Shown: positions 1 to 44,860, numbered from the stretch's first letter. The stretch is 64,000 nucleotides of DNA from an uncultured Lentibacter sp. (GCF_937123735.1 NZ_CAKZKL010000011.1:1833-65832); one strand, 5' to 3'. Numbers and translations: made by a program. Notes: generated by a model not told the origin, from the letters alone.

Positions 1-33
1 AAGCGGCCATGGTCGGGCTCACATAAGCCTGCT

Positions 34-402
34 TCAGCTTTGTTGCACAACCGGTGCACCGATCAATTCGTTGAGCAATGCGCGGTGCCCACTGGGTATC
101 TTTCCGAGAGCTGCTTGAAGGCTTTCAAAGCTGAAAGCCACCATATCAAGCGGACCATGTGCAATCCCGAGACTTTGCCAAGTGCCGCCCACCAGCGCAT
201 CATTGATCCCGACAATCTGCTGTGGTCCAACCCAGCGCTTAAGCTGGGCTCCATCGGCCGAAAAATTGAGCAAAGTGCCTCTCACAACCAAAAAAATGGA
301 TGTCACAGGCATACCCTGCACAAAAAGCACCTCCGAATGGAAGAGGTGAACAGCTTGCCCATGACCAAGGGCATGGGGGCGGTGTAAACTTGCCATGGAC
401 AT
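34..402 (-). CDS. degenerate cyclic-nucleotide-binding-like (Crp-type beta-barrel) domain protein, 122 aa
   Basis: ORF track. The pattern VLFVQGMPVTSIFLVVRGTL...VGPQQIVGINDALV resembles a cNMP-binding fold, but I see no canonical phosphate-binding cassette. Its ATG (400-402) directly abuts the TGA (403-405) of the upstream ORF, in the same frame. Confidence 0.45.
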   Translation of the reverse strand: MSMASLHRPHALGHGQAVHLFHSEVLFVQGMPVTSIFLVVRGTLLNFSADGAQLKRWVGPQQIVGINDALVGGTWQSLGIAHGPLDMVAFSFESLQAALGKIPSGHRALLNELIGAPVVQQS

Positions 403-768
403 TCACGCCACACGATTTTGCGAGAGACATTCAACAGCGATTGATCGCGCGAGGGTCCAGGTGAGCGGATTCTCCTCACAAAGGCTGTCGCGAAAAAGCC
501 CGCGGGGAATATGAATAAGGATACAGGGCGCTTGGGTGCGCACTTCGCTCTGATAGTGCGATAAAGCAAGAAACTCGCGCAGGTTCAAAACCTGGCCACC
601 CTCATAGGCAACCCCGTCACTGCCCCTTGCCAACCCTTGTTGCAACCAAACCATACGATCTGTGGGCAAACCTGTGAGGTTCAAGGTCGTGCGCGCACTT
701 ACCTTTTGGCGTGGCAACTCGGCCAAAGACAGCTCGTCTATAAATTCTGATCGCATAGGCTCCCCCAT
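403..768 (-). CDS. degenerate cyclic-nucleotide-binding-like domain protein, 121 aa
   Basis: ORF track. GGQVLNLREFLALSHYQSEVRTQAPCILIHIPRGLF resembles the C-terminal half of a cNMP-binding barrel. It ends in a TGA that is in frame with the next ORF. Confidence 0.4.
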   Translation of the reverse strand: MGEPMRSEFIDELSLAELPRQKVSARTTLNLTGLPTDRMVWLQQGLARGSDGVAYEGGQVLNLREFLALSHYQSEVRTQAPCILIHIPRGLFRDSLCEENPLTWTLARSIAVECLSQNRVA

Positions 769-828
769 GTATGAGAGAACGGCACCCAGTGCGAATACTT
801 TAGCCCTTTCCAGGAAAAACGCGTTAAG

Positions 829-1623
829 TTAGGCCTGTGTTTGTTGTTCACGCAGACGTTTGCGCTCGAGCCTGTTGGGCCTGACCTCTTTTTGCTCCTG
901 CTCAAATGCAAAGCGAACATCCGGAGAAATCTGGCGGCAAACCTTGCGTGCCTCGCTTTCAGAGGTTGCTGCAACGGTCAGCCAATAAAGTTTGTCTTCA
1001 AACAAATGATAAGAGCGCAACAGGTTTATCTGAGCACGCTTCACATAGAGACTTGTCAGAATATAGGCCAAAACAAAAAGTGCGATATGGGTTAGAGCCG
1101 TGATTGCATAGACTATGCTGACAGCAATCATCGGATAATATAGGCGATGATTGAGCATCCAGAGAAGCGGCGCAATGGTCGCCAGGCCGTCAGGGCGTGT
1201 CTCATGCAAAGCGGCATTCAACCGAATATCGCGGAAAACTTCGTAGTTCTGGTAGGTTTCAATGCGGTCAAAATGCAGCTTCTTGAACTCTTGCGCAACT
1301 TCAAGCGCTTCCTCGGGCGTCGCAAAATCAAACCGGGCCCGAAAAGGTGTCTCAAAGCAGAGATTGAAGAAAACTCCATCGCGCCAAAACGTAAGCAACC
1401 ATGCGATATCTGGCTCGTTGGGGTCATAATCTTCAAAGGCCGCCTTAAGCGTCTCTTCATCACCCAAGAACGGCTCTCCATCAATGGCAGCCAGAATATC
1501 TCCCTCTCTCAGCCTGAAAGACACGCCCAAAGCGCTCATACCGGATTTCTGGAGTTTGAGCATCTGCATCGGAGGCAAGCCATCTGCTGCTGTCTCTTGC
1601 GTATTGTTTTCGTCCATCGTCAA
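829..1623 (-). CDS. membrane protein with an N-terminal PDZ-like segment and a C-terminal two-TM (DUF2628-like) region, 264 aa
   Basis: GVSFRLREGDILAAIDGEPF is PDZ-like. Two hydrophobic helices are present (LATIAPLLWML...MIAVSIVYAITALTHIALFVLAYILTSL). It is co-directional with the flhB operon. Confidence 0.5.
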   Translation of the reverse strand: MTMDENNTQETAADGLPPMQMLKLQKSGMSALGVSFRLREGDILAAIDGEPFLGDEETLKAAFEDYDPNEPDIAWLLTFWRDGVFFNLCFETPFRARFDFATPEEALEVAQEFKKLHFDRIETYQNYEVFRDIRLNAALHETRPDGLATIAPLLWMLNHRLYYPMIAVSIVYAITALTHIALFVLAYILTSLYVKRAQINLLRSYHLFEDKLYWLTVAATSESEARKVCRQISPDVRFAFEQEQKEVRPNRLERKRLREQQTQA

Positions 1624-1674
1624 ACCTCAATACCGCGTGCACAGATGTGCAATTATCTGGCTGCGCGCTTTTCG

Positions 1675-2469
1675 TCAGGGATAGGTGATCGGGTCATCTG
1701 CTTTCGGCTTCGGAGCCTTCTTCACGGCGACCGGCTTTTTGCGCGATTTTGGTGGCGGGCTGTTCGCCGCTGTGATCTTGGCTGAGATTTCTTTTTGCAA
1801 CAGAAGGATACCTTCTATCTTGGCGCTCAACTCACGAGAGACTTCGCCGCCGCCGGAAGCATCTCCAGCCATTGTTGACAAGATTTCTGACAGATCGCTT
1901 TGCGCCGTTTGCAGCTCGCTCAGAGAGGCCAAAATGGTCTCTGACTGCGCACTCAGGTCTGTCTCAAACTTTTCGAGCATCGCCGAACTGAATTGTGAAA
2001 CTGCCGCATTGGTTGTTTCTGCAATTTGGGTCAGGCCTTCGCTCGTCTCGCTCTGCACCTCAAGTTGCTTTTCTTCAAGGCGCCCAAGCATGAGCGTTGT
2101 TTCCTCAGCCGTTTTGGCCAAGCTCAGTTGTTGCTCGATGGCTTTGTCCAGAGAGGACGTGCTCATAGCCAGCTTATCGACGTTTTCTGCAAATATAACC
2201 AGCGCCTCCAACGACGTGCTGCTGCTGGTCTCCATGGCCTCCAATGTGCGGTAATACATCATTGAAGCTACGACGACTGCGACCAGGCTTGCCACCGCCG
2301 AGCTTACAAAAACAATAGTCGCATTTTTGTATATCTTTTTCACCTCGCCCTCCACGGCAGCATATTCTTGGTTAATACGGGCAAATTCATTCGTCGCATC
2401 CGTGGCCGCGTCCGCAGCGTCCAGTGCAATTTTGATACTGTCTTCAACAGCTTTGGCTTGCGTGCTCAT
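1675..2469 (-). CDS. single-TM coiled-coil protein, 264 aa
   Basis: I chose the internal ATG at 2467-2469 because GAGGAGAT lies just upstream. One TM helix (ATIVFVSSAVASLVAVVVASMMYY) is followed by a long Ser/Glu/Leu/Thr-rich heptad-like region and a Lys/Pro-rich tail. Confidence 0.55.
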   Translation of the reverse strand: MSTQAKAVEDSIKIALDAADAATDATNEFARINQEYAAVEGEVKKIYKNATIVFVSSAVASLVAVVVASMMYYRTLEAMETSSSTSLEALVIFAENVDKLAMSTSSLDKAIEQQLSLAKTAEETTLMLGRLEEKQLEVQSETSEGLTQIAETTNAAVSQFSSAMLEKFETDLSAQSETILASLSELQTAQSDLSEILSTMAGDASGGGEVSRELSAKIEGILLLQKEISAKITAANSPPPKSRKKPVAVKKAPKPKADDPITYP

Positions 2470-2471
2470 GC

Positions 2472-2687
2472 CTATCTCCTCACAGTGTTTGGTGTTGCGC
2501 GGGGTCGGCGCTGAAACTTGTCTTTGAACTGAGCACAATTCATGCCAGTTGCCGCAAAAACTTCAAAACTGGGTGGTTGGCTCGATTTGAAGCCGAAAAC
2601 CTTGCAGCCGTGCGGACGGGCCGCTTCAAAGGTCACAAAGTAGTGTTCACATCGTCCACAGGCGATATGGCGTGTTTTCTCTTTCAT
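2472..2687 (-). CDS. small four-cysteine (CxxC...C...C) protein, 71 aa
   Basis: Sequence MKEKTRHIACGRCEHYFVTFEAARPHGCKVFGFKSSQPPSFEVFAATGMNCAQFKDK. A GGAGGAGG RBS lies upstream. The ATG overlaps the TGA of the preceding ORF (ATGA). Confidence 0.55.
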   Translation of the reverse strand: MKEKTRHIACGRCEHYFVTFEAARPHGCKVFGFKSSQPPSFEVFAATGMNCAQFKDKFQRRPRATPNTVRR

Positions 2688-2905
2688 TTTGAAAACCTCC
2701 TCCGCCCCGCCTCGGCAACGTCTGCTATTACAAAACGCAGACCACCCAAGAAGCACATGAAAGACGCGCAAAAAAGCCCCCAGACTTGGATCTTTGGCAC
2801 TTGACCAAGGAGTGCGAGCGCTTCCAGCAATATCCATGCAGACATGCCAAAGAAGCAAACTGTCGAAATCATTTCGCCCATACTGCGGGTGCGTTTTCCA
2901 GCCAT
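2684..2905 (-). CDS. small two-TM membrane protein, 73 aa
   Basis: The ATG lies 1 nt after the flhB TAG stop. Two hydrophobic helices are present. There is a 4-nt stop/start overlap with the next ORF, which suggests translational coupling. Confidence 0.45.
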   Translation of the reverse strand: MAGKRTRSMGEMISTVCFFGMSAWILLEALALLGQVPKIQVWGLFCASFMCFLGGLRFVIADVAEAGRRRFSK

Positions 2906-2906
2906 T

Positions 2907-4067
2907 CTAGATCTCTCCGTTCAGGGCTTTGCCGTGTTCGTCAAACTGCAGTTCATCAGGAATATCCACCCAAGGCTCCTCCGGATTTTCACCCCGGTCC
3001 AAGCGGAAAACATAAGCCAAGACAGCCGCAACCGCAGTGTAAACCCCATCGGTAATTTCCTGGCCTATATCGCCAGTGAAATAGAGCGCCCGTGCCAACA
3101 GAGGGCTGCGGAAGACCGTCACATCATGCTCAGCACCCTTTTCAATAATCCGTTCTGCCATCTTTCCACGTCCCATTGCTAAGATAACTGGCGCGCGCAT
3201 TTCGCCGGGCACATATTTTAGCGCCACAGCAAAATGCGTCGGGTTGGTAATGATTGCCGTTGCATCGGAAACATTTTCCAATGCGGCATTTTGCTCTGAA
3301 GCTTTGCGGCTGGCCTCATATTGAAGGCGGCGAATGCGTGATTTTACTTCCGGCGAGCCTTCTTGCTGTTTGTGTTCATCCTTGAGGTCTTGCCGGCTCA
3401 TCCTGAGCTTTTGCATATGCGCATGCCATGAATAGGCGAGATCGAGGCCTGCTATTAAGCCCAAGACAACGAGCGCCGCCGCCAAGGCAAACAGGGTTCC
3501 CCAGAACACCTCATGAAGGGCTGGCACCAACCCTGTGCTCGTCAAGCGCAAGACTGTGGGCAATAACGCAGCGATCACGCCTGCAAAAGCCGCCCCCAAC
3601 AGTGTCACCTTTGCAATCGCCTTAGCCAACTCAACCAGACCTTTGACAGAAAACATGCGCTTGAAGCCACTCAGTGGGTTGATGCGATTGCCCTTGAAGG
3701 CCAGCGCCTTGGCCGTGAAGTTGAGCCCTCCCCCCACGGCTCCCTGAGTTGCCAATACAGCAACCAGCATTGGCAAACCGATAATGGCAGACAGCACAAG
3801 GAATATCCAAAGTGCATCCCCCAAGCGGATCAGAACTTGGCTATCCATTTGGTCCAAAGATCCAAACTGAAAAAACGCCATCCAATGGCCGATTTGCGAG
3901 GGGATATAGAGCGAAAATGCGTAAAGCATCGCAATACCCATGGCCATGGTCGAAAAAACGAACATCTCTTTTGAAGATAAGACCTCCCCATCTTCTGCCG
4001 CTTTCTCAAGCCGTTTCTGGGAGGGGTCCTCTGTCTTTTCCTGGCTCTCGTCACCACCTTCAGCCAT
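2907..4067 (-). CDS. flhB: flagellar type III export switch protein FlhB
   Basis: The NPTH autocleavage motif is present (AIITNPTHFAVALKY), with four N-terminal TM helices. I prefer the ATG at 4065-4067 (MAEGGDESQEKTEDPSQKRLEKA) over the TTG at 4082. Confidence 0.95.
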   Translation of the reverse strand: MAEGGDESQEKTEDPSQKRLEKAAEDGEVLSSKEMFVFSTMAMGIAMLYAFSLYIPSQIGHWMAFFQFGSLDQMDSQVLIRLGDALWIFLVLSAIIGLPMLVAVLATQGAVGGGLNFTAKALAFKGNRINPLSGFKRMFSVKGLVELAKAIAKVTLLGAAFAGVIAALLPTVLRLTSTGLVPALHEVFWGTLFALAAALVVLGLIAGLDLAYSWHAHMQKLRMSRQDLKDEHKQQEGSPEVKSRIRRLQYEASRKASEQNAALENVSDATAIITNPTHFAVALKYVPGEMRAPVILAMGRGKMAERIIEKGAEHDVTVFRSPLLARALYFTGDIGQEITDGVYTAVAAVLAYVFRLDRGENPEEPWVDIPDELQFDEHGKALNGEI

Positions 4068-4881
4068 CAGGCATACCCCCAATCATGGTTTGCAGGACAT
4101 TGAATGCATCATTCAGCAAGTCTGAAAAAGACCATGCAATCGGCGTCACGGATAAAATGAGCAGAACAAAAACACTCAAGATTGTAATCGGAAAGCCAAA
4201 TGAAAACAGGTTCAGCTGTGGTGCTGACTTGGTGATGACGCCAATTGCCAAATTGATGATGAACAAAACAGCAACAATAGGCAGCATGATGCTGGCCGCA
4301 AATGCAAACATCAAACCGCCGGCATCAATTCCGGTTTGGATCATTACGGGGAACACCACGGCACGCCCTATCGGCACTGTGTTATAGCTTTCAATCACGA
4401 GTGCGAGGATGAGCATGTGACCATTGAGTGAAAAGAAAATAACGAGCAAGAAAAGTGTCAACATCTGGCTGATCACCGGAGATTGGCCGCCACCAGATGG
4501 ATCGACCTGCATCGCAAAGGACAGCCCCGAAGTTGCGGCGATTTTCTCGCCCGCCAGGCCAACAGCCGCAAAAAGGATTGTCAGCGTCAACCCGACGCTG
4601 AGACCGATTGCCAACTCCTGGATCACCAGGGGAATTACATAAAACGAAGTCAAAACCTCCGGAACCGGCGGCTCAATCTGCGAAAAAACAAAGAGCCCCA
4701 AACCAAACGAAAACACGATCCTGATCTGCAAGGGCACCATCCCTGAGCCAAAAAAGGGTGATGAAATAAGAAACGCCCCGACCCGTAAGGTGACCACTAA
4801 CAACTGCAAGAGCAAATCAAGCAGACCTTGAAGGGGGACGCCCGGCAACCCGCCAAGTGATATGGCGTTAAGCGCATTCAT
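4060..4881 (-). CDS. fliR: flagellar export gate protein FliR
   Basis: A polytopic membrane protein of 273 aa sitting between fliQ and flhB. There is an ATGA overlap with the fliQ stop. Confidence 0.92.
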   Translation of the reverse strand: MNALNAISLGGLPGVPLQGLLDLLLQLLVVTLRVGAFLISSPFFGSGMVPLQIRIVFSFGLGLFVFSQIEPPVPEVLTSFYVIPLVIQELAIGLSVGLTLTILFAAVGLAGEKIAATSGLSFAMQVDPSGGGQSPVISQMLTLFLLVIFFSLNGHMLILALVIESYNTVPIGRAVVFPVMIQTGIDAGGLMFAFAASIMLPIVAVLFIINLAIGVITKSAPQLNLFSFGFPITILSVFVLLILSVTPIAWSFSDLLNDAFNVLQTMIGGMPDG

Positions 4882-5147
4882 CGGCCGACAGCGGCAATTT
4901 CTTCAAAGATGAAAGCAAAGTAATCACTCAGCTGGGTCATCATAAATGTCGATAACAAAGCAATCGTCATCAGCACAAGGATCAGCTTGGGCACAAAGCT
5001 CAAGGTCATTTCGTTGATTGATGTGGCCGCTTGCAAAATACCAACCAACAAACCAATCGCCAGCGCCACTCCCAAAATCGGGCCTGATGCCATAATGATC
5101 TGCCAGAAAGCGAGGCGTAGGTATTCTATATTATTGTCAAATTCCAT
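4878..5147 (-). CDS. fliQ: flagellar export gate protein FliQ
   Basis: An 89-aa two-TM protein with the typical FliQ sequence (ILGVALAIGLLVGILQAATSINEMTLSFVPKL). Confidence 0.95.
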   Translation of the reverse strand: MEFDNNIEYLRLAFWQIIMASGPILGVALAIGLLVGILQAATSINEMTLSFVPKLILVLMTIALLSTFMMTQLSDYFAFIFEEIAAVGR

Positions 5148-5153
5148 GGTGCC

Positions 5154-5921
5154 TCAAGGGGTGCTAAAGGTTGCGGCAAGTGAGCCCACTGTCATCGCCC
5201 AGCCATCGACCAGAACAAACAACAAGAGCTTGAAAGGCAGGGAAACCAGCATAGGCGACAGCATCATCATCCCCAAAGACATCAGGATGGAAGCAATCAC
5301 CATATCAACCACCAAAAAGGGTAGGAAAATCAAAAAGCCAATTTGAAATGCTGTCTTCAATTCCGAGGTGATGAACGCGGGCAACAATGTTGAAAACGGG
5401 ATATCCGCGTTGCTCTCATAGGCCGTTGCGCCCACCATATCCGAAAACATCAAAAGCGTATCACGCCGGGTGTTGGCCACCATAAAGTCTTTCATAACCC
5501 TCGAAGCTTCCGCTATCGCCGCATCTGCTGAGATCGTCTCAGACAGAAATGGCGACAGGGCAGAGTCATAAATTTGCGTCAAAGTGGGCTGCATAATGAA
5601 CAGCGACAGAAAAAGCGCGATCGCGATCAAAACCTGATTGGGCGGCGTTTGCTGGGTGCCCAACGCTTGACGCAAAATTGACAACACAATGATTATTCGG
5701 GTGAAAGAAGACATCCCCAGCACCAGAGATGGCAAGAGGGTCAACGCAGTCATCAGCGCCAAAATTTGCAACGACAGTGAGTAAGTCGTCGCGCCGTCTT
5801 CCCCCTGCGCAGACGACAGAGCCGGCAAGCCAGACACGTCAAACCCCTGTGCAACTGCGGGCGCAGCGCTCGCGATCAAAGCGACTGAACAGAACCCAGC
5901 AATGAAATGTATCTCACGCAT
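5154..5921 (-). CDS. fliP: flagellar export gate protein FliP
   Basis: FliP signature FQIGFLIFLPFLVVDMVIASILMSLGMMMLSP. The start was set to the ATG at 5919-5921 (MREIHFIAGF...) because it has an AGGAGA RBS. Confidence 0.95.
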   Translation of the reverse strand: MREIHFIAGFCSVALIASAAPAVAQGFDVSGLPALSSAQGEDGATTYSLSLQILALMTALTLLPSLVLGMSSFTRIIIVLSILRQALGTQQTPPNQVLIAIALFLSLFIMQPTLTQIYDSALSPFLSETISADAAIAEASRVMKDFMVANTRRDTLLMFSDMVGATAYESNADIPFSTLLPAFITSELKTAFQIGFLIFLPFLVVDMVIASILMSLGMMMLSPMLVSLPFKLLLFVLVDGWAMTVGSLAATFSTP

Positions 5922-6195
5922 CTTTGCTCTCCTGCGAAACCGAAGAATCTGGCAGTGGCAAAAGCGTGATGGCCCCCTGCTTGGCCTGGCCAACAAGAAT
6001 ATCAACCTCCCTCACCCGCACGAGCATGAGGCGCTCTTTTTGGCCGAGGCTCAAAGACTGCACGATCTGGATCGGCTGGCCGGAGAGCTTAAGGCTCCCA
6101 TGCCGACCGAACCGTTTGACAAAGATTTGCACAGCCAGAAGGGCTGCGAGAAAACAAATCACGATAATGATCTGAAAGGGTTGAATATCGACCAT
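5914..6195 (-). CDS. fliO: flagellar protein FliO
   Basis: A 93-aa protein with one N-terminal TM helix, then LSLGQKERLMLVRVREVDILVG, typical of FliO. It sits directly upstream of fliP. Confidence 0.8.
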   Translation of the reverse strand: MVDIQPFQIIIVICFLAALLAVQIFVKRFGRHGSLKLSGQPIQIVQSLSLGQKERLMLVRVREVDILVGQAKQGAITLLPLPDSSVSQESKDA

Positions 6196-6227
6196 GTTGC
6201 ACCTTGCTGGTTCACAGCGTTAACAAA

Positions 6228-6242
6228 GCAAGTTGCGTGCCA
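6228..6242 (-). promoter_or_regulatory. sigma54 (-24/-12) promoter for fliOPQR-flhB
   Basis: The minus strand reads TGGCACGCAACTTGC(T). This matches TGGCAC-N5-TTGC exactly. It lies about 33 nt upstream of the fliO ATG. Confidence 0.8.
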
Positions 6243-6331
6243 ACCTTTCGGGATACGGAAAAATTGAGTTAAATCAGTGTATATGGGCGAAAATCACTAT
6301 CCCCACTGACGGGAATTTGACGGCGCAGAGG

Positions 6332-6649
6332 TTAAAGGCTTTCAACGCGTTTCTCTGGTTCAACAATCTCGCCGAACCGTATTCCAAACCGCTCGCCGAC
6401 CATAACCACCTCGCCCTTTGCGATCATGGTGCCGTTGATCAAAATATCAAGCGGATCTCCGGCAAGCCGGTCAAGCTCCATGATCGACCCCTCGCTCAAG
6501 CGCAGTAGGTCACGAATGGTGATTTCAGACCGGCCGACCTCGACGGTCATTTGGACTTCAATGTTTTCAAGCACACGCAGGTTTTCGCTGCCGTCGCGCT
6601 CTGGCTTGCGCTCTACATTTTCTTCTGCTGTTGAGGCCTCATCTACCAT
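6332..6649 (-). CDS. fliN: flagellar motor switch protein FliN
   Basis: The SpoA-like C-terminus is present: VEVGRSEITIRDLLRLSEGSIMELDRLAGDPLDILINGTMIAKGEVVMV. Confidence 0.93.
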   Translation of the reverse strand: MVDEASTAEENVERKPERDGSENLRVLENIEVQMTVEVGRSEITIRDLLRLSEGSIMELDRLAGDPLDILINGTMIAKGEVVMVGERFGIRFGEIVEPEKRVESL

Positions 6650-6663
6650 GGGGTGCCTTTCCT

Positions 6664-7656
6664 CTAATTGCTATCTTTGTTGGTTTTGACGCGTTCACGC
6701 AAGTGAAGCGCCGCTTGTGGGCCAAGTTGACCGAGCTCAGCAATGAAAATATCCTTTCCCTCGACCAAAACCTTGATGCCATCGGAAAGCTGGATGGGAA
6801 AAGTGTCACCACTTTGCAGAGTCAGCAAGTTGCGCATGGACACCTTGGGTTTCGCCAGTTCAGCAGTCACCACAAGTGGGATGTTCAAAATAGCCCGCTC
6901 AAGCTTTTGGCGCCAAGACATGTCATCATCAACAAACTCTGATTGAACACGCGACCTTAACAGAGAGGCGATCGGCTTAAGGGTTTGCAAAGGGTACACG
7001 ACGTCAAAAGCAGCCGGCTCATTGCCCGGGAGCTGCACGAGGAACGTGCAAACAATCACGGTTTCGCTGTTGTCGACAAAAGACGCAAACTGCATGTTTT
7101 CTTCATGGCTTTGCACCGAAAAAGATACTGGCGTCAAATCACGCCAGGCCATCTGCATCGAGCTCATGAGCCCTTCTGTCACAATCTCGATCACCCGCTG
7201 TTCCGTTGCGGTGAACTCGCCCGTTGGCTTGCGCAGAGGGCGCACGGCGGTGCCGCCATAATAGGCATTCGTCAACAGCGAGATAAAATTCGGGGGCATA
7301 ACCAACAGGCTGCTTCCACGGAGCTCTTCCATACGGCTTGTGGTCAAGCTCATGAAGCTTTCAGCATCCGAGCTGTATTCCTCGAAAGTTTTTACTTCAG
7401 GTGGAAAAGACGAGATGCGCGGTTGAATGCGCAACATCGGCAAAAAGACGCTGCGTGCAAAACGACAGAAGCGCTCGTTGATCATCCGAAGAGCATAATA
7501 GTCGCCCAGAAGCGACAGATCGTCAGACCCGAAGGAAAAGGCACGCACCTCAACATGTTCGCCAGCACTTCCAACCGAGAGCGTTTCTGCCTGGTCTCCA
7601 AGCCCGTCTATCAGTGCATTCACTTCATCGGAGGTAAGTTTTTTGGAAGACGCCAT
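6664..7656 (-). CDS. fliM: flagellar motor switch protein FliM
   Basis: A 330-aa protein with an N-terminal LTSDEVNALI (CheY-P binding-like) motif and typical FliM middle and C-terminal regions. It sits between fliL and fliN. Confidence 0.93.
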   Translation of the reverse strand: MASSKKLTSDEVNALIDGLGDQAETLSVGSAGEHVEVRAFSFGSDDLSLLGDYYALRMINERFCRFARSVFLPMLRIQPRISSFPPEVKTFEEYSSDAESFMSLTTSRMEELRGSSLLVMPPNFISLLTNAYYGGTAVRPLRKPTGEFTATEQRVIEIVTEGLMSSMQMAWRDLTPVSFSVQSHEENMQFASFVDNSETVIVCTFLVQLPGNEPAAFDVVYPLQTLKPIASLLRSRVQSEFVDDDMSWRQKLERAILNIPLVVTAELAKPKVSMRNLLTLQSGDTFPIQLSDGIKVLVEGKDIFIAELGQLGPQAALHLRERVKTNKDSN

Positions 7657-7670
7657 CTTTGAACAGCCCT

Positions 7671-8261
7671 TTACTGCAACACAAATGAGGTGAAATGGAC
7701 ATGCTCGATACCACCAAAACCTTCGAGCATTTCCAGCCTCGCGTTGATGGCCTCAACCATTTTTTGCGCCAGCAAATCACGCCCGGCCTTGCCTTGAATG
7801 TCCTCTTCGCTGAATTCACTAATTGTGCCCAACACCTCCGAGCGCAACGCGAGCTGATGCGTTTGAACATGCTCGATAACACTGTCATCATATTGAGTAG
7901 ATACGCCGACACCAAGCTGCAAAAACTTCCGTGAATTGCGCAAATTGGTTGTAAAGTTGCCGTCAAATTCGAAGTAAGTCGTCACAAATGTGTCCACATC
8001 AGGGACATCTTTCTTATTCAATTCCGGCTCGGCGTCAGGGTCTTCTACAACCTCCTCCTCTTCAGGAAGCTGCCCACTCTCTTTGAGCTTACGTTCAATG
8101 ATCTGCTCAATTTCATCACTCGGCGACAAGTTAGAACCACCAAACAAAAAGAAACCGGCTCCCAGGCCTACGCCCACGAGCAGCAGCCCTCCTACAACGA
8201 AGCCAATAATCTTGACAAGTCCGCCTTTTTTCTTTGGTTCTTCGGTCTCTTGGTCAGCCAT
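7671..8261 (-). CDS. fliL: flagellar basal-body-associated protein FliL
   Basis: A single TM helix (IIGFVVGGLLLVGVGLGAGFFLF), then a FliL-type periplasmic domain ending in HVHFTSFVLQ. Confidence 0.85.
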   Translation of the reverse strand: MADQETEEPKKKGGLVKIIGFVVGGLLLVGVGLGAGFFLFGGSNLSPSDEIEQIIERKLKESGQLPEEEEVVEDPDAEPELNKKDVPDVDTFVTTYFEFDGNFTTNLRNSRKFLQLGVGVSTQYDDSVIEHVQTHQLALRSEVLGTISEFSEEDIQGKAGRDLLAQKMVEAINARLEMLEGFGGIEHVHFTSFVLQ

Positions 8262-8278: not shown

Positions 8279-10093
8279 TTATGCAATAAGATTAACGGTG
8301 CCGGCGTGATCTCCACCACGCAACGCCGATGCCGCAGCGGTTTCCCCACCGCGTTGAGAGCTTCTGTCTGAAGAAACGCTTGAGCTATGTTTTTGCTTGC
8401 CATTTTGTGGCTGCCCCTGCCCAGACGGCGGATGATGAAATCCCGACATCGACGCTGACATCGAGCTCAGACGAAAGCCCGCCGCATCCAACATTTGCGC
8501 CAATCTATCTTCAGCGCCAATCAACACGCGGGAAGCTGCGGTGGTTTCTGTAACGATGCGAACTTGTGTATCATCTCCGCGAAACTCCAGGCTCACGCTC
8601 ATATCTCCCAAGTTTTTTGGCCGTAGCGAAAAATCATAACGTGCCACGCCCTCGCTGTGCATCTTCTCAATATGCGCGACCAGTTTTTGCCCCCATTGGG
8701 CGTCGCGCATATTCAATGCAATCGCTGTTCTCAACACTTGCGTTTGGAGTTGCGCCAGAGGTTGATTTTGCGCCTGTGATGGCGCGCCGCGTTCCATTTG
8801 CCCAAGCTCGGGCTTGGCTGGAACGGCTGAAGCTGGCGCAGACTCGCTATTCGTGGTCGAAACTTCCTCGCCCTCAAAAGCCAGCTTGAGCACAAAACGC
8901 TCGGGCTGTTGCTCTGGCTGTAGCTCTGGCGAAGGCAACGAATGGTTGGTGTCCTTTGCGCCTGTCATATCTGGGGCTGCACTGGCAAGATCCGGCTGGC
9001 CAAGCGGCCCTTGGCCCAAGTAGCGGGCAAATTGCGACAGGGCCGGTTCTGGCTTGGCATTGTCTGTGGCGTCGGCATCTGCCAGCTTGACCAGGGGGGC
9101 TTTGGCGTCAGCAAGAATTGTCTCCTCAGCACGCACCTTTGAGCCTGAAGCCTTGTCGCTGCTCGCAAGTTTTGAGTGAGGTGCCACGAGCGGCGCGACC
9201 AAACGCGCTTCGTGCGATTGCTCTTCTGAGGGGGTGACCTCAAGCTCAGTGGTCGGTGCAGCCGGCACAGCGCCCGCAACCTTATCTCTTATCTTGTCCA
9301 CGGAAGCTTCATGTCGCAGACTGGTACCAATGGGTTCAGGTGTCGGCATTTGCGGGGGCGTGCTGTTGTCTGCCTTGAGCGAATGCGCATTGTGCATGGC
9401 ACTGCTGAGAGCAGCTTCAGCAGTCGCGGTAGAAAACGTCTTTGCGGGCGATGGAGCGAGCCGCGCGGATGTTGACGCTTGTGCCGAATTCGTGTGCTCC
9501 AGCACGTCTTGCTCCGGCGTCACAAAGCCGAGCGCCTTAGAATTTTGAACAGATAGGGTCTCTAGTTTGGGCCTTGAAGCAGTATCTACAACCGCAAATT
9601 TCTCGGTTCTTTTCTCACTATTGGAATCAGTCGATCCCAGGAGTGCGCCCTGCCCTGCGCCCACTGCGTCATCGCGAAACTGCACTGGAGGAGTATCATC
9701 AGCACTCAGCAATAGCGGACCAGTTTCTGGCGTAATAAGATCAAGACCTCGTTTAGCACCCGAGCTCACAGTTTCAGCGGCAGGCACAACAGCGGCAAGC
9801 GGTTCTGCTGGTGTTAATTTCACATCAACAATCTCAGAAGCCTCTGTGAGGTCTAACGCGTCCGCCTCACCAAAGGTGGCTTCTTGCCCTTGGGCCAAGA
9901 GTTGTTCAAACGTGTTCTGATGATCGCTTTGCTCATTCGCTTCGCCATCTTGATGTGAGGCAACGACATTTCTTGCAACACTGACATTTGGCGCGCCAAG
10001 TGTGGATTTCAGAGGCGGCATTTCCTCAAATGCAGTTTTTTGCCCCGCGTCCTTGGGAAGCGCAATATCTGCCGCTGATCCAACACTGTTCAT
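8279..10093 (-). CDS. fliK: flagellar hook-length control protein FliK
   Basis: A long Ala/Pro/Ser/Glu-rich disordered region, with a C-terminal Flg_hook-type domain (LRPKNLGDMSVSLEFRGDDTQVRIVTETTAASRVL). It sits after fliJ. Confidence 0.8.
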   Translation of the reverse strand: MNSVGSAADIALPKDAGQKTAFEEMPPLKSTLGAPNVSVARNVVASHQDGEANEQSDHQNTFEQLLAQGQEATFGEADALDLTEASEIVDVKLTPAEPLAAVVPAAETVSSGAKRGLDLITPETGPLLLSADDTPPVQFRDDAVGAGQGALLGSTDSNSEKRTEKFAVVDTASRPKLETLSVQNSKALGFVTPEQDVLEHTNSAQASTSARLAPSPAKTFSTATAEAALSSAMHNAHSLKADNSTPPQMPTPEPIGTSLRHEASVDKIRDKVAGAVPAAPTTELEVTPSEEQSHEARLVAPLVAPHSKLASSDKASGSKVRAEETILADAKAPLVKLADADATDNAKPEPALSQFARYLGQGPLGQPDLASAAPDMTGAKDTNHSLPSPELQPEQQPERFVLKLAFEGEEVSTTNSESAPASAVPAKPELGQMERGAPSQAQNQPLAQLQTQVLRTAIALNMRDAQWGQKLVAHIEKMHSEGVARYDFSLRPKNLGDMSVSLEFRGDDTQVRIVTETTAASRVLIGAEDRLAQMLDAAGFRLSSMSASMSGFHHPPSGQGQPQNGKQKHSSSVSSDRSSQRGGETAAASALRGGDHAGTVNLIA

Positions 10094-10575: not shown

Positions 10576-11907
10576 TCAGTCAGCTATGAGTTCCAACAAA
10601 CTTTGTGCGCTCATATCAAACGATGCCGCATCATGCGCAGGCTGCTTGATAAACGCCGTAATTTGAGGCCAAAGGGCTATTGCGAGATCGAGCTCGGGAT
10701 CCTGACCGGCCGCATACCCTCCCATCAACATCAAATCTCTGTTTTCCATATATACTGATACCAACCTTTTGAATTTCACTGCCGCCGCCTGATGCGGGCT
10801 CGAAACAATATCATTCATGACACGGCTGACAGATGCGGTAAGATCAACTGCCGGGTAAATTCCCAATTGGGTTTGCTTGCGTGACAAAACAATATGACCA
10901 TCCAGAATAGCCCGCGCCGTATCAACCACCGGATCATTTGTGGTATCGTCGCCATCGGCAAGAACAGTATAAATAGAGGTAATTGCCCCCTCCCCTTTTG
11001 TTCCTGTTCCTGACCGTTCCACAAGGTTGGGGATCATCGAAATGACAGATGGCGGATAACCTTTGGCAGTGGGTTGCTCGCCCAGTGCCAATCCAACTTC
11101 TCGTTTGGCGTGAGCAACGCGTGTCAAGGAGTCCATAATCAACAACACATCCTTGCCCTGCGCACGGAAATATTCGGCAATCGCAGTTGCTCTGTTTGCT
11201 CCGCGAATGCGCAGGAGTGCCGCCCGATCTGCTGGAACGGCAACAACACAAATTTTGTGTCGCGCCTCAAGAGTCATGGAACGTTCGACAAAGTCGCCAA
11301 CTTCGCGCCCACGTTCCCCTATCAGGCCAACGACAATAACATCCGCCGTTGAAAAGCGTGTCATCATTGACAACAGAACAGATTTCCCAACACCCGAGCC
11401 AGCGACAATCCCAACCCTTTGACCACGACCAATGCTGAGCAACGCGTTCACCGCGCGGACACCGACATCCAATGGCTTGGAAATCGGACGACGCTCAAGC
11501 GGGTTCACTGGCTTGCCATGCAAGGGCCACTCCTGATCCAGCGTGAGTGCCCCCCGACCGTCAAGCGGATTGCCTTGCGCATCAATCACGCGTCCAAGCA
11601 ACGCCTCTCCAACAGCGATGTTCCTTCCCGGATTTTCAACAGTGACCCGCGCGCCCACTTCAATATCCGCGTTCTGATCATAGAGAAATGCGAGGTTTCT
11701 TCCGTCACGAAACCCGATGATTTCTGCTTCCACAGTGCCTCCATCGGGGAGATAAACATGACAAATCGAGCCGACGGACACTGGAAATCCGTCGCACTCA
11801 ATCACCTGGCCATCAAACCGTGTCACATGCCCGGAGGCCTGCAAGACAGGCGGCTTGCCCATTTGCCGGATCAATGCATGTAAAGGCTCTATAACGCTCG
11901 CGCTCAT
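10576..11907 (-). CDS. fliI: flagellum-specific ATPase FliI
   Basis: Walker A (GSGVGKS) is present, with F1/T3SS-ATPase-like sequence throughout. Confidence 0.97.
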   Translation of the reverse strand: MSASVIEPLHALIRQMGKPPVLQASGHVTRFDGQVIECDGFPVSVGSICHVYLPDGGTVEAEIIGFRDGRNLAFLYDQNADIEVGARVTVENPGRNIAVGEALLGRVIDAQGNPLDGRGALTLDQEWPLHGKPVNPLERRPISKPLDVGVRAVNALLSIGRGQRVGIVAGSGVGKSVLLSMMTRFSTADVIVVGLIGERGREVGDFVERSMTLEARHKICVVAVPADRAALLRIRGANRATAIAEYFRAQGKDVLLIMDSLTRVAHAKREVGLALGEQPTAKGYPPSVISMIPNLVERSGTGTKGEGAITSIYTVLADGDDTTNDPVVDTARAILDGHIVLSRKQTQLGIYPAVDLTASVSRVMNDIVSSPHQAAAVKFKRLVSVYMENRDLMLMGGYAAGQDPELDLAIALWPQITAFIKQPAHDAASFDMSAQSLLELIAD

Positions 11908-13010
11908 TGCTCGTCATCACCATTGATATTGGACAAATCCGGGGCGGCCTCTAGATTCTGCTCGGCGGAGGACAGGCTATCAACGTTGTTTTCCTCCTCG
12001 GATGGTTCCTCCGCCAAGCTCAAATCGTGCATCTGTTCTTGGGGCTCGGGCTGCTCAGCGATCTCGGCGGCTGAAACAAGCGGAATATATTCCACGCGCG
12101 TCGTTTTTGGTTCAATTCGTGGCAAGACATCCGTCAGGCGTATGCCTTCCAGGGCAATGTCAATATCTCCCCGCTGCAACTCGGCGTTTGGAACAAGGCG
12201 CAAGCCCAACAGGTTTTCTGACTCTTCCAAGATCGGTTTCAGAACCAGTAGATCATTGGGATGAAGGCGCACCACCGGATGAGATACCGAGGCATGAACG
12301 CGCTCTGCCAAGGTTTCAATACGGGCCAGAAACAGCTCGGGCAACGCATCTATCTCAACCCCAGCCCGAGCGGTGGCCAAGCTGATCACACTTGCTTCAA
12401 TCGTCTGGGCCAAAGTTTCACTGGCGCTATGAGCGCTTGCTTCAAAAGCCCCAACAGTCTGCTCCAGGAGCGAAAGCGCTTGTGCCATCATGGCCTCCAC
12501 TTCGTCTCTGGCTTGTTGTTGCCCATCCGCGAGACCCGCCTCATAAGCTTGCTGAAGAGCAGCCTCAGAGACGCTCGAGCTAGGTGACTCGCGTTCTTGC
12601 TCCAAAGGCTCTTCATCTGCTTGCATCGCCACGGGCTCTTGCGCGACCGCATCTTCTGGCGCGTCCTCATAGGGCGGTTCGGGCGCAAGATCTGTTGGTT
12701 CTGGAGCCTCCGAACTGGCCGCAATTTCGGCTTCAGGTTCCGGCGAAGTCGGCTCCGGTGCCACTATAGGAGCGGGTTCCTTTTGGGCGGCTTCTTCTGC
12801 CATGCGCGCTGTTGCTTCACGCGCCAAATCAAGCAAGCTCTTGGGCTGGAAGGGGCTTTTCTCACGGCGAGAAGCCTCTTCATCTTTTTTGAAGACCTCC
12901 GCATCCATGGTGTTGATGAACTGCGTTATCTCAGACTGTTTCAAAGGCACGCCAGAAACGACATCCTCAGAGCGCAAGAAGCCCGTATGTGGCACAAACT
13001 CTTGGGTCAT
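11904..13010 (-). CDS. fliH: flagellar assembly protein FliH (expanded, acidic/Pro-rich)
   Basis: It sits between fliG and fliI with ATGA overlaps on both sides. The central helical region and C-terminal domain are FliH-like. Both termini carry long low-complexity extensions. Confidence 0.75.
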   Translation of the reverse strand: MTQEFVPHTGFLRSEDVVSGVPLKQSEITQFINTMDAEVFKKDEEASRREKSPFQPKSLLDLAREATARMAEEAAQKEPAPIVAPEPTSPEPEAEIAASSEAPEPTDLAPEPPYEDAPEDAVAQEPVAMQADEEPLEQERESPSSSVSEAALQQAYEAGLADGQQQARDEVEAMMAQALSLLEQTVGAFEASAHSASETLAQTIEASVISLATARAGVEIDALPELFLARIETLAERVHASVSHPVVRLHPNDLLVLKPILEESENLLGLRLVPNAELQRGDIDIALEGIRLTDVLPRIEPKTTRVEYIPLVSAAEIAEQPEPQEQMHDLSLAEEPSEEENNVDSLSSAEQNLEAAPDLSNINGDDEQ

Positions 13011-16185: not shown

Positions 16186-17340
16186 TCAACTGCTCAAGCG
16201 GCTCAGCGCCGGATGTGGGTTTGTCGGGCTGGGCATGACATGGGGAATTCGTGCGCCATCAATGATGATGTCTTCTGCTTGAATCATCCCATCAACTTGC
16301 AAAACAAGAGCGCGTTGGATCACGTTTTCAAGCTCTCTGACGTTCCCGGGCCATTCATGGCTGATTAGCAAAGAGCGCGCCTCAGCTGTTATCCAAGGAA
16401 TTGCTTCAATCGACGAGGCATGCTTACGCAAGAGCCCAATAGCGAGTGGCAAAATATCAAGCGGGCGCGCGCTCAAAGCTTGCGTGCTCATTGGGAAGAC
16501 GTTCAAACGATAAAAGAGATCTTCACGGAAGCGGTTTTCCTGAATTTCAAGCCGCATATCGCGGTTGGTTGTCGCTAAGACGCGCACATCAACTTCAATC
16601 TCCGCCTGTGCACCAAGCGGCGTCACCTTCCGTTCTTGTAAAACCCTTAATAACTTGGATTGCAAACCAAGGGGCATTTCCGAAATTTCGTCGAGCAAAA
16701 GGGTGCCTCTGTCAGCAGCCCTGAAAATGCCTTTGTTGGCAACAGACGCACCTGTGAACGCCCCTTTCTCGTGGCCAAAAAGCACCGCTTCCAGCATGTT
16801 TTCAGGGATAGCCGCACAGTTGATAGCAACAAAAGGTGCTTCGGCCCGATCAGACCGATCATGGATATAGCGCGCAAGAACCTCTTTCCCCGTCCCGGTT
16901 GGTCCGTTCACAAATACAGTGACGTCAGAGGTTGCGACACGGCTGGCCAAAGATAACATTTGCGAGGTCGCTGGATCAGCGGCTACCATCTTTGAGATAT
17001 CCGCAGCCAGTATCTCGGCTGCAACGGTGAGCTCGAAACCCTCATCTTCAGGTAAGCTCACGCGCAACAGCTTGCCTCCAAGTGAACTTACAATGGAAAA
17101 CTTGTCTGCACCAAATTTGAAAACAACGACACACTTTGGTTTTTGAGCTCGCGCAATGTTCAGAAGCGCTTGCTGCCCTCCGAGTACCTCTTCATAATCT
17201 GCTGAATATGCCCAAACAGCCCCAACAGAACCTTCAGCTGGAGCCTTTACGACCTCAGCGCTAATTTTCCGAATAGCCACACTGGCACATAACCTTTCGG
17301 CCTGTGGGAATTTGGCAGCTTCAATCAAAATAGAAGTCAT
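16186..17340 (-). CDS. fleT: sigma54-dependent activator lacking a DNA-binding domain (FleT-like)
   Basis: An AAA+ sigma54-interaction domain is present (VNGPTGTGKE, GAFTGA, NVRELEN). It follows a ~135-aa N-terminal domain. The protein ends about 45 aa after NVRELEN with no HTH. It is the first gene of the fliE-J operon, which as I recall matches R. sphaeroides fleT. Confidence 0.8.
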   Translation of the reverse strand: MTSILIEAAKFPQAERLCASVAIRKISAEVVKAPAEGSVGAVWAYSADYEEVLGGQQALLNIARAQKPKCVVVFKFGADKFSIVSSLGGKLLRVSLPEDEGFELTVAAEILAADISKMVAADPATSQMLSLASRVATSDVTVFVNGPTGTGKEVLARYIHDRSDRAEAPFVAINCAAIPENMLEAVLFGHEKGAFTGASVANKGIFRAADRGTLLLDEISEMPLGLQSKLLRVLQERKVTPLGAQAEIEVDVRVLATTNRDMRLEIQENRFREDLFYRLNVFPMSTQALSARPLDILPLAIGLLRKHASSIEAIPWITAEARSLLISHEWPGNVRELENVIQRALVLQVDGMIQAEDIIIDGARIPHVMPSPTNPHPALSRLSS

Positions 17341-17591: not shown

Positions 17592-17613
17592 TCTATTGGG
17601 GAGAATAATATCA

Positions 17614-18156
17614 ATGCGCGCGCCAATAAAACTTGCAGCTCTATACGGCCTCCCGGCCGCGCTCACAATTGGCGCATTTTCCATCGGCCATTTAAGCATT
17701 AGCCCTGAGACAAGCCCCCTGAACCCGCCGAATGTCGAGGCAATCAACGAAGCAGCCTCTGAGCAAGACGCAGAAGAGCCCTCAGTAGATGACACTGAAT
17801 TGGCAGAAGGCAACATACTTTCAGAGCCAGACTTTCAATACTACCCTTATCCTTCGACCGTTATTGGCAATATTCCTGGTAGCAACAAGTTATTCAGTTT
17901 TGAAATAGCGGTTTCCATATTTGAAACCCCTCTGAGCGCAAGCAACTTAATGTCCGCTCTGGAAGAACGAGAACCTCAGCTACGCCCTGTAATCCTCGAT
18001 CAAACTGTTGATCTAACAGAAGAGGCATTGCTCTCCAAAGAAGGACGGAGCAACCTGGCTGAACTTATAAAGGCTTCAATAAACAACTCACTCATCCGCT
18101 GGGGGTATGAACCGTTCATTCACTCTGTGGAAATAACATCCTTTATCGTCACCTAA
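17614..18156 (+). CDS. FliL-family protein (second paralogue)
   Basis: An N-terminal TM helix and a C-terminal region (KLFSFEIAVSIFE...EGRSNLAELIKASINNSL...VEITSFIVT) that resembles the FliL domain. The ATG has a GGGGAGA RBS. The track ORF starts at an upstream TTG. Confidence 0.6.
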   Translation: MRAPIKLAALYGLPAALTIGAFSIGHLSISPETSPLNPPNVEAINEAASEQDAEEPSVDDTELAEGNILSEPDFQYYPYPSTVIGNIPGSNKLFSFEIAVSIFETPLSASNLMSALEEREPQLRPVILDQTVDLTEEALLSKEGRSNLAELIKASINNSLIRWGYEPFIHSVEITSFIVT

Positions 18157-18181: not shown

Positions 18182-18197
18182 TGGCACTAAAATTGCA
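18182..18197 (+). promoter_or_regulatory. sigma54 promoter
   Basis: TGGCACTAAAATTGCA matches the consensus exactly. It lies 34 nt upstream of a 56-codon ORF and upstream of fliS. Confidence 0.75.
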
Positions 18198-18420: not shown

Positions 18421-18447
18421 TAAACAAGACGCCCCTTCAGACGTTAT
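18421..18447 (+). promoter_or_regulatory. candidate sigma28 promoter for fliS
   Basis: Reads TAAA-N15-GACGTTAT and ends 33 nt before the fliS ATG. Confidence 0.35.
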
Positions 18448-18479: not shown

Positions 18480-18851
18480 ATGAATTACGCGTTTGCACGA
18501 AATCAATATGCAAGATCAAAGCAAGCTGCATTGAGCAATATTTCTGATCCACATGAGATGATCTTGCTAACCTTACGCGAGCTCACGCGCAGCTTGGCTT
18601 TGCTTGATGCGCCAAATCTCGGGGCCGCTAAGCGCAAGAACCATTTTTCAAAAGCCTTCACTGCAATCTATATTTTGCAAACCAGCTTGGATTTTGAGGC
18701 CGGCAGTGAAATTGCTCAAAATCTTTTTAAAATATACGAGTATTGCCGGGACCAGCTATTACTGGCACTCAAGGGTAGCTCCGATCACGATCTGAAGAGC
18801 TGCATCACTATTGTAAATGACATAATTGACGCTTGGGAGCAGATAAAGTAA
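18480..18851 (+). CDS. fliS: flagellin-specific export chaperone FliS
   Basis: A 123-aa four-helix pattern typical of FliS (HEMILLTLRELTRSL...KAFTAIYILQTSLDFEAGSEIAQNLFKIYEYCRDQL...IIDAWEQI). Confidence 0.8.
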   Translation: MNYAFARNQYARSKQAALSNISDPHEMILLTLRELTRSLALLDAPNLGAAKRKNHFSKAFTAIYILQTSLDFEAGSEIAQNLFKIYEYCRDQLLLALKGSSDHDLKSCITIVNDIIDAWEQIK

Positions 18852-19749: not shown

Positions 19750-19867
19750 ATTTAAGGGTAGCAATCCCGCAACTCCAGTTTAGTTGCAGATTATCTAAAG
19801 TAAATTGTAACTTTTCTCCAGTAAATTTTTCTTGCTATCGAATGGCACATCATTGACTGGAGCACTC

Positions 19868-20107
19868 ATGAAGCGTGAAAAACAAAAATCACCGATATGC
19901 CGTCAATGCATGATTATAAGATATTTTATATTTGCCGCTGGCTTGGGTATTCTCAGCATTCCCTTTGCAGGAGAGCGCTTTTCCCCCCTGTCAAACCTCA
20001 CGGCTTGGCATTTTGTTTTTGTCATTTGGGGCATCGGGGTGATTGGGTTTCTTTTGAAGCTGGTGCTTGAAATGCGGCCAACGTCTGAGACTGAAACCGA
20101 CGAATGA
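19868..20107 (+). CDS. small two-TM membrane protein, 79 aa
   Basis: The ATG has a GGAG RBS. Two hydrophobic helices are present (YFIFAAGLGILSIPF; WHFVFVIWGIGVIGFLLKLVL). Confidence 0.4.
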   Translation: MKREKQKSPICRQCMIIRYFIFAAGLGILSIPFAGERFSPLSNLTAWHFVFVIWGIGVIGFLLKLVLEMRPTSETETDE

Positions 20108-20134
20108 GCCTCGACGCCCCTGTTAAGGGTTTAA

Positions 20135-21001: not shown

Positions 21002-21073
21002 TGTGGAATAAATTGATTATTAGAAATATATTCCGAAAGGAGTTACCCTTTTGATAAAATAAAGCTGATCGTG

Positions 21074-44853: not shown

Positions 44854-44860
44854 GGCCGCA

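Follow-up and report, generated by a model that had tools for sequence, protein, structure and literature searches.

The Fla1 flagellum of Rhodobacter sphaeroides is a main model of a one-directional, stop-start motor. Its protein MotF acts with FliL to release the plug of MotB, upon which protons pass through the stator and drive rotation; loss of MotF leaves paralysed flagella, a defect suppressed by MotB plug mutations, and its localisation needs FliL, MotB and FlgT. Ramirez-Cabrera and colleagues reportedly placed motF, in 2012, at the head of a transcription unit that also holds two hypothetical genes. The 24-kDa protein crosses the membrane once (residues 54-74), has a periplasmic C-terminus, is essential for rotation, becomes dispensable once the MotB plug is mutated, and is recruited via the FlgT H-ring; rpoN2 lies within the same fla1 locus (PMC7277832). 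Its gene, RSP_0067, directly follows flhB (RSP_0066), and its expression tracks that of the flagellar genes upon overexpression or deletion of the small RNA UdsC (PMC9779115). Here we examine six open reading frames (ORFs), A to F, that follow the export-gate gene flhB in 64,000 nucleotides (nt) from an uncultured Lentibacter sp. (GCF_937123735.1 NZ_CAKZKL010000011.1:1833-65832), the whole of which we call the window. We propose that they are conserved accessory genes of a Fla1-type cluster, arranged in three nested expression units and including, in ORF C, the likely counterpart of MotF, a reading to which we assign a probability of roughly 0.6. For one gene of this tail a known counterpart is probable; the remaining five, also conserved, are either unannotated or labelled hypothetical.

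The window carries a complete flagellar gene cluster of the R. sphaeroides Fla1 type, called 'fla3' in the Rhodobacterales literature, a type that accounts for 8% of the flagellar clusters in 306 genomes (PMC7277832; PMC12363192). We base this assignment on the combination of sigma54 and sigma28 control, FlgT and the gene order fliK-L-M-N-O-P-Q-R-flhB. As in R. sphaeroides, rpoN, fliA, FlgT and two sigma54 activators lie inside the cluster and predicted sigma54 promoters precede fliK and fliO; the relatives of the cluster are Rhodobacteraceae. The difference lies in ORFs A, B, D, E and F, none of which is mentioned in the published descriptions of Fla1 clusters that we found. Sequence comparison shows here that A-D are conserved in every example of the cluster type (B aside in the loci named below) and E-F in a subset.

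Conserved gene order downstream of flhB

The six ORFs are co-directional on the minus strand, and their coordinates and junctions (Table 1) agree with the original prediction. Its descriptions of the products (a protein with two transmembrane segments, a four-cysteine protein, a membrane-anchored coiled coil, a PDZ-like protein and two degenerate domains resembling those that bind cyclic nucleotide monophosphates, cNMP) were likewise upheld by hydrophobicity, alignment, AlphaFold and Foldseek, and profile searches of the PDB. None of the single sequences of A-F reached a curated threshold in Pfam or NCBIfam, and an exact look-up of the ORF F sequence returned no match. The same order is found by tblastn and hidden Markov model (HMM) searches in other genomes, at identities down to 30-40%, and on this comparison all six ORFs are real genes, far beyond chance.

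More than 40 loci, with G+C contents (GC) of 29-67%, share the order fliQ-fliR-flhB-A-B-C-D; among them are Lentibacter, Nereida, Roseicyclus, Donghicola, an Octadecabacter plasmid and marine metagenomes. L001, a contig of 98% identity, and L002, from Lentibacter algarum, carry the same six genes behind flhB; next comes a convergent rpoN of 490 amino acids (aa), then flagellin. Across the 17 loci from genomes and assemblies (L001-L017), flhB-A-B-C-D is present in all, with B missing in two, and E-F are present in 13; the four that lack E-F are L014-L017, three of which are Gemmobacter-like. E-F are also missing from a contig of 43% GC (L019) and from the Octadecabacter arcticus plasmid pOA238_118 (L020), both of which have A-D, and from Donghicola (L018), in which A, C and D were detected by HMM at 2.6e-16, 7.8e-24 and 4.2e-16, respectively, and B is missing. 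In total, B is absent from L005, L007 and L018. Each of the 22 loci from marine metagenomes that measure 9 kb or more (GC 29-59%) carries flhB-A-B-C-D. Homologues of ORF D number 77, all from Rhodobacteraceae or metagenomes (for example, 62% identity in Lentibacter algarum and 48% in Roseicyclus).

The metagenome loci are arranged differently beyond D: convergent motB and motA follow, then rpoN. Of the 9 loci long enough to show the far side of rpoN, 7 have F and E there, on the opposite strand and convergent on rpoN. By gene order, therefore, the tail consists of one block, [flhB-A-B-C-D], and a second, [E-F], which converges on rpoN; the two lie side by side in the window's lineage. Synteny of the tail with flhB was seen in every relative examined. 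The idea that the six genes form one module found no support, since A-B-C-D moves with flhB and E-F with rpoN, with motB, motA and rpoN intervening elsewhere. Nor does the module continue to the left of position 1: the tail ends at F, because the next gene, as seen in L001 and L002, is the convergent rpoN.

On the Octadecabacter plasmid (NC_020909.1), A (77 aa) and B (65 aa) both have clear homologues, at 7747-8174 between flhB and the C-like gene. These are absent from the RefSeq annotation of this record, the one plasmid record checked, and RefSeq labels C and D hypothetical; rpoN has the same orientation as the tail there. The L014 contig (JBIKVM010000001.1) is labelled as a metagenome-assembled genome of Limisphaerales (Verrucomicrobiota) and bears a Gemmobacter-like cluster much like those of L015 and L017; it is probably mis-binned. 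Four metagenome loci (L061, L063, L079 and L086) hold the full flhB-A-B-C-D core at 29-32% GC, which to our knowledge is below the range of described Rhodobacteraceae. This type of flagellum, tail included, is probably present in other marine lineages as well.

Predicted promoters within the tail

We scanned for sigma54 promoters with the consensus TGGCAC-N5-TTGC(W), in which the GG and GC dinucleotides are 10 nt apart. The site upstream of fliO matches it perfectly (Table 1) and is the probable source of a fliO...flhB-A-B transcript, and a match with one mismatch lies ahead of fliK. Another predicted element, TGGCATGAATTGTGC (2533-2547, minus strand), is located within ORF B, the 3' end of which carries in this way a predicted promoter for C. 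It matches 13 of the 15 consensus positions with GG and GC intact, and its predicted transcription start is near 2521. The element, TGGCA[CT]G...TGC[TA], was found 70-85 nt ahead of C in 86 of 95 loci. The nine loci without it are mostly contig ends or have a longer B-C spacer, and the three loci without a B gene (L005, L007 and L018) retain this element before C.

The element overlaps codons 47-52 of B (T-G-x-x-C-A), and codon usage at these positions was examined in 45 unique B sequences, the fetched loci spanning 28-67% GC overall. Thr47 is encoded by ACT, Gly48 by GGC and Cys51 by TGT in 45/45 sequences, and Ala52 by GCT in 40 and GCA in 5, whereas the other invariant residues of B (Gly27, Gly32, Cys10, Cys13, Cys28, Phe31, Phe33 and Pro39) use two to four synonymous codons each. 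Since the motif codons are fixed while those of other invariant residues vary, the constraint acts at the nucleotide level, as would be the case for a promoter. We predict a conserved sigma54-type promoter within B, ahead of C; the original prediction had reported no -24/-12 motif between these genes, a statement that the recurrence of the element and its fixed codons contradict. It presents a clear case of a predicted promoter fixed inside a protein-coding sequence. The GG of the -24 element and the GC of the -12 element are the first two bases of the Gly48 and Ala52 codons, and the codon of the fourth putative zinc-ligand cysteine stands between them.

The gap between D and E contains a motif of another kind, TAAAG-N15-CCGTTCTC, to be compared with the sigma28 reference TAAA-N15-GCCGATAA. 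The form TAA[AC]-N15-18-CGTT occurs just before E in 13/13 loci of this arrangement, although between distant loci the gaps are otherwise unalignable, and the flagellin genes of L001, L002 and L018 are preceded by a like motif (CTAAAC, N14-16, [TC]CGTT). The fliC gene of R. sphaeroides is among the sigma28 (class IV) genes. We predict that the D-E motif is a sigma28-type late promoter for E-F. A sigma54 site was also considered for this motif and rejected, as the GG-N10-GC spacing is unsuitable. In a sigma70 scan of the region, matches were no more frequent than in shuffled sequence.

ORF C as a candidate counterpart of MotF

ORF C is the first large gene past flhB in all loci. It has one hydrophobic segment (residues 48-73) and long helices, and its AlphaFold2 model (predicted local distance difference test score, pLDDT, 81.9) shows helices at 3-79, 84-202 and 208-236. 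Two parts are strongly conserved: an N-terminal acidic helix with the invariant residues E9, I12, K13, A15, L16, A18, A19 and D20, and an invariant segment just outside the membrane, T85-N96, TSLEALVIFAEN (also TSLEALVIFAENVDKL). Beyond this segment come a helix predicted to run for about 120 residues, a second helix and a basic, proline-rich tail ending in I-x-[FY]-P. C is predicted from these models to be a single-pass membrane protein with a cytoplasmic acidic helix and a long periplasmic helix. The family counts 273 representatives at E<=1e-3 (50% clustering); a PDB profile search with C gave coiled-coil composition matches only and no real relative.

These properties resemble those of MotF in several ways. 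Both genes come next after flhB, C as the first large gene there, in a cluster of the Fla1 type with rpoN inside; both proteins span the inner membrane once, at about residues 50-74, and have their long C-terminal part in the periplasm, a topology that for C is predicted; and both belong to a flagellar system that contains FlgT (the H-ring) and is controlled by sigma54 and sigma28. Upstream of C the conserved sigma54-type motif lies at a distance of 64-85 nt, and C may begin a transcription unit of its own there, as motF is reported to do. Also, motAB is adjacent to D in many loci. We consider C a candidate counterpart of MotF, with odds somewhat better than even, because its position, topology, size class, own predicted promoter and downstream hypothetical genes match. 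MotF differs in its mass, 24 kDa as compared with about 28 kDa for C (264 aa here, 230-245 aa in many relatives), and in having been described as restricted to Cereibacter or to Rhodobacteraceae, whereas loci fetched with low-GC members of the C family as query reach down to 29% GC. The view that none of the six products is a canonical flagellar component has to be revised in this light, as in R. sphaeroides flhB is immediately followed by motF (PMC9779115, PMC7277832).

Other stator helpers make poor relatives. The protein called MotF in S. meliloti and Agrobacterium was considered and rejected: this paralogue of FliL, about 177 aa long, has the name alone in common (PMC9541039). FliL, MotE/MotK of Fla2, MotX/MotY and the S. 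meliloti 'MotF' are membrane or periplasmic proteins, encoded in flagellar clusters, that aid the engagement or activation of stators, but neither FliL nor the other stator accessories have a sequence or fold relation to the tail proteins.

Products of ORFs A, B and D

ORF A was found after flhB in all loci (tblastn or HMM, E 1e-8 to 1e-31), starting within a few nt of the flhB stop in every one. With two hydrophobic segments (residues 12-36 and 41-64), it is a small membrane protein that forms a two-helix hairpin with basic ends, both of them probably cytoplasmic; it has no family match in Pfam or NCBIfam. The alignment of B (A6) shows four invariant cysteines, C10, C13, C28 and C51, in the pattern CxxC...C...C; B is a soluble, basic protein and probably zinc-binding. 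A search of Pfam, NCBIfam and PDB profiles revealed no relative of B.

For D, the AlphaFold model (pLDDT 79.8) has its best Foldseek matches in the PDB exclusively among PDZ domains (RseP PDZ2, MucP PDZ2 and DegS), with probabilities of 0.98-1.0, weak E-values of 7e-3 to 3e-2 and a TM-score to target of about 0.5. The PDZ-like fold (RseP/MucP PDZ2, DegS, CtpA) is predicted for residues ~20-115, where D also has the G-[LM]-[GS] loop and a GD-[VI]-L-x-A-[IV]-[DN]-G motif; no Pfam PDZ model matched, and the PDZ matches in PDB profiles were weak (E = 0.1-0.9). Unlike the PDZ proteins named, D has no protease domain, and its PDZ-like domain is probably cytoplasmic rather than periplasmic. This N-terminal domain is followed by a small alpha/beta domain, a hydrophobic region (146-195, with a stretch at 164-195) that would cross the membrane once or twice, and a C-terminal tail that is basic. 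Two spans with both ends cytoplasmic are favoured, because the 145-residue N-terminus lacks a signal peptide. In most loci the C-D junction measures -4 to 12 nt, and C and D, nearly always coupled in translation, are therefore likely to be made together.

ORFs E and F converge on rpoN

The E family profile matches cNMP-binding domains in the PDB (PKG, PKA-R) at 2e-7, and that of F matches 2pqq at 3e-6 and cyclic-nucleotide-gated channels at 1e-3; as single sequences, E and F score 15.1 and 19.3 bits against Pfam PF00027, which has a cut-off of 27.5. The two are only distantly alike (hhalign probability 57%). As in known cNMP-binding domains (PF00027; PKA/PKG, Crp/Fnr, 2pqq), their profiles span the beta-barrel and the following helix, but E and F are stand-alone proteins of 115-125 aa without an effector domain, fall below the Pfam threshold as single sequences and do not keep the phosphate-binding cassette. 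That cassette, Gly-Glu...Arg-[ST]-Ala, was placed by eye from the sequence and is not kept in the alignment of either: in E the position of the phosphate-binding arginine varies (R, K, T, S or V), and in F the invariant Gly65-x-x-Asp68 and Gly79-[VIL]-Ala81 replace Gly-Glu and Arg-[ST]-Ala. Binding of cAMP or cGMP in the usual manner is improbable for E and F, and a sensing role for them finds no support, the phosphate-binding arginine not being conserved. The two are translationally coupled, with genes that abut or overlap, and may form a 1:1 pair.

In both gene arrangements E-F converge on the 3' end of rpoN. The stops of F and rpoN are 7 nt apart in the window (1-36; L001 11584-11592), and in the Lentibacter locus L002 the two genes overlap by 4 nt (11595-11598). 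There is no room for terminators between them, and therefore a late E-F transcript from the sigma28-type promoter would run antisense into rpoN. This geometry, together with the cNMP-binding-like domains that are typical of Crp/Fnr-type regulators, would suit a role of E and F as regulators of sigma54-dependent transcription, or of their transcript as an antisense to rpoN, in place of an association with the motor. However, neither protein has a DNA-binding domain, and rpoN and F are spaced by about 300 nt in the metagenome loci; we regard such a role as unlikely.

Organisation of the tail and competing readings

The terminator scan revealed no convincing intergenic terminator within the six-gene tail, as the original prediction had also found, and the hairpins it listed lie inside coding sequence. 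Read-through is therefore likely, so that the expression units would be nested rather than separate. In the organisation that we propose, A and B would be made with the export-gate proteins, early or mid-assembly, from the sigma54 promoter of fliO, because A abuts flhB and is itself overlapped by B. C and D would be boosted by the sigma54 promoter in the last codons of B at the time when basal body and stators are made, which in R. sphaeroides is the class III stage. The last to be made, together with flagellin, would be E and F, from the sigma28-type promoter.

C may stand beside the stator, its conserved near-membrane segment level with the MotB plug and its long helix, which with about 120 residues would suffice to span much of the periplasm, directed toward the FlgT ring. 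D could be its partner, the PDZ-like domain holding the cytoplasmic helix of C or another partner. E and F may form a cytoplasmic heterodimer that acts at a late stage of flagellar assembly, on the running motor or on sigma54-dependent expression.

Several observations weigh against this picture. No Cereibacter protein was returned by homology searches, by the search for representatives of the C family or by a cluster look-up, and the C. sphaeroides group terms MotF 'Cereibacter-specific' (PMC10954123); C could therefore be a positional analogue of MotF and not a homologue. Both promoter types are motif predictions: the -24 element in the window reads TGGCAT instead of TGGCAC and the -12 element GTGC instead of TTGC, and the -10 core of the sigma28-like motif is CGTT, not the textbook CGAT. 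The PDZ assignment of D relies on weak Foldseek E-values, its topology may comprise one or two spans, and any action of A, B, D, E or F on the flagellum is putative.

Were C not the counterpart of MotF, A-B-C-D might serve the export gate (FlhB, FliPQR) or act as assembly or positioning factors of the basal body, rather than serving the stator. The missing Cereibacter matches would be expected in that case, as would the constant placement of A beside the flhB stop and the translational coupling of A, B and C. The predicted promoter of its own that C possesses, its agreement with MotF in position, size class and topology, the presence of motAB beside D in many loci, and the location of its most conserved periplasmic stretch just outside the membrane, presumably at the level of the MotB plug, argue for the stator instead, and we hold a role confined to export or assembly to be improbable.

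The original prediction regarded all six genes as one extension of the sigma54-driven fliO transcript, their products making up a single module, for sensing or anchoring, at the export gate or motor. Part of this is plausible: the genes are co-directional with tight junctions, A, B and C overlap or abut, no convincing terminator separates the genes, and the sigma54 site upstream of fliO is perfect, so that transcripts from fliO may well read into the tail. The conserved internal sigma54 and sigma28-like motifs before C and E imply, however, that the tail is not simply an extension of the fliO transcript. Moreover, motB, motA and rpoN separate D from E-F elsewhere, with E-F on the opposite strand, and the Gemmobacter-like, Donghicola, Octadecabacter and L019 clusters keep A-D without E-F, which makes a single module quite unlikely. 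That the ORFs, chiefly the small A and B, are chance frames or passengers between flhB and rpoN, as their failure to reach curated family thresholds and the RefSeq record of the Octadecabacter plasmid could suggest, is ruled out by protein conservation in fixed order across the loci and by B, which has four invariant cysteines and normal synonymous variation outside the promoter motif.

Conserved accessory genes in nested units, with C as the likely MotF counterpart, therefore remain our preferred reading. It suggests that every cluster of the Fla1 type has five or six conserved, unnamed genes, of which one is probably the counterpart of MotF, and it offers candidates to specialists: D as a possible partner of MotF, A and B as proteins made with the export gate, and E and F as a late, sensor-like pair tied to rpoN. 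A more far-reaching version, which we put forward tentatively and consider rather doubtful, would make A-D and E-F unrecognised working parts of Fla1. In it, C-D would be a stator-activating complex with a MotF-like strut, timed by sigma54 from within the zinc-ribbon-like B; E-F would be a heterodimer that controls the stopping and starting of the motor or feeds back on sigma54 via rpoN; and the core would be ancestral. If this were true, the occurrence of the core in marine lineages well outside the Rhodobacteraceae (GC down to 29%) would reflect an ancestral feature of this flagellar type.

Features of the window and further observations

The cluster follows the order fliF-G-H-I-(J)-K-L-M-N-O-P-Q-R-flhB, with rpoN flanking it, and in the first 10 kb every gene, from fliK through flhB and then the six ORFs, is on the minus strand. 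Elsewhere the window holds flgD, flgE, flgF, flgG, flgH, flgI, flgK, flgA and fliD, and likewise encodes an FlhG/MinD-like ATPase and flhA. In L001, the gene call for flhB is 386 aa. Two starts of the tail may be drawn differently from Table 1. D probably begins at the ATG at 1617, behind GAGG, which gives 262 aa and a C-D gap of 57 nt; this start is favoured because the gene caller picked the ATG in the 98% identical contig. For E, the likelier start is the ATG at 756, the family-invariant Met5, behind GGGGAG, which gives 117 aa.

Table 1. Positions of the flhB tail, its predicted promoters and related flagellar genes in the window.
Feature	Position	Strand	Details
rpoN (sigma54), 3' end	1..26	+	convergent with F, marks tail end; read from sequence; L001/L002 gene calls
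ORF F	34-402	-	122 aa; 0-nt gap, start codon abuts E stop
ORF E	403-768	-	121 aa; 60-nt gap after D
Predicted sigma28 (FliA)-type promoter, TAAAG-N16-CGTT, TAAAGTATTCGCACTGGGTGCCGTT	778-802	-	in D-E gap; sole exact match in the 64-kb window
ORF D	829-1623	-	264 aa; 51-nt gap after C with TTG start
ORF C	1675-2469	-	264 aa; 2-nt gap after B
ORF B	2472-2687	-	71 aa; 4-nt ATGA overlap with A
Predicted sigma54 -24/-12 element inside B, CTGGCATGAATTGTGCT / CTGGCATGAATTGTGC(T)	2533-2548	-	64 nt before C ATG
ORF A	2684-2905	-	73 aa; 1 nt past flhB stop
flhB, export-gate switch protein, anchor of the tail	2907..4067	-	Pfam Bac_export_2 2.4e-100; TIGR00328 3e-100
fliM, fliN, fliP, fliQ, fliR	between fliL and flhB, with fliO in the order fliL-M-N-O-P-Q-R	-	
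fliO	5914-6195	-	gene call
Predicted sigma54 site upstream of fliO, TGGCACGCAACTTGC	6228-6242	-	0 mismatches; 33 nt before fliO
fliL	7671-8261	-	gene/family calls
fliK	8279-10093	-	gene/family calls
sigma54 activator, first	16186-17340		
fliA (sigma28)	38887-39621		
FlgT homologue	44693-46003		
sigma54 activator, second	49043-50188		

No Rfam match was obtained in positions 1-7000 of the window, and a repeat search of positions 1-3000 gave nothing but short chance pairs. The hook protein FlgE and the hook-associated protein FlgK are 1358 aa and 1416 aa long, respectively (32221-36297 and 24137-28387, minus strand); the usual forms of both are far shorter. In the middle of the cluster, between rod-like and flagellin-like genes, lies a gene for a CLC-type chloride channel with a CBS domain (21071-22792, plus strand), and besides fliL there is a second FliL-family ORF of 186 aa (17596-18156, plus strand; Pfam FliL 7e-7). 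Among the metagenome loci, L094 has an unassigned 231-aa ORF between D and motB (11615-12310, minus strand), and two bactofilin genes and an M23 peptidase beyond rpoN (19768-20577, plus strand). Finally, a perfect sigma54 match, TGGCACTAAAATTGC (18182-18196, plus strand), is located in the window upstream of a fliS-like ORF that starts at 18480, and a motif like the sigma28-type one before E precedes the same gene at 18421-18447 (plus strand), which suggests that this ORF is under dual control.

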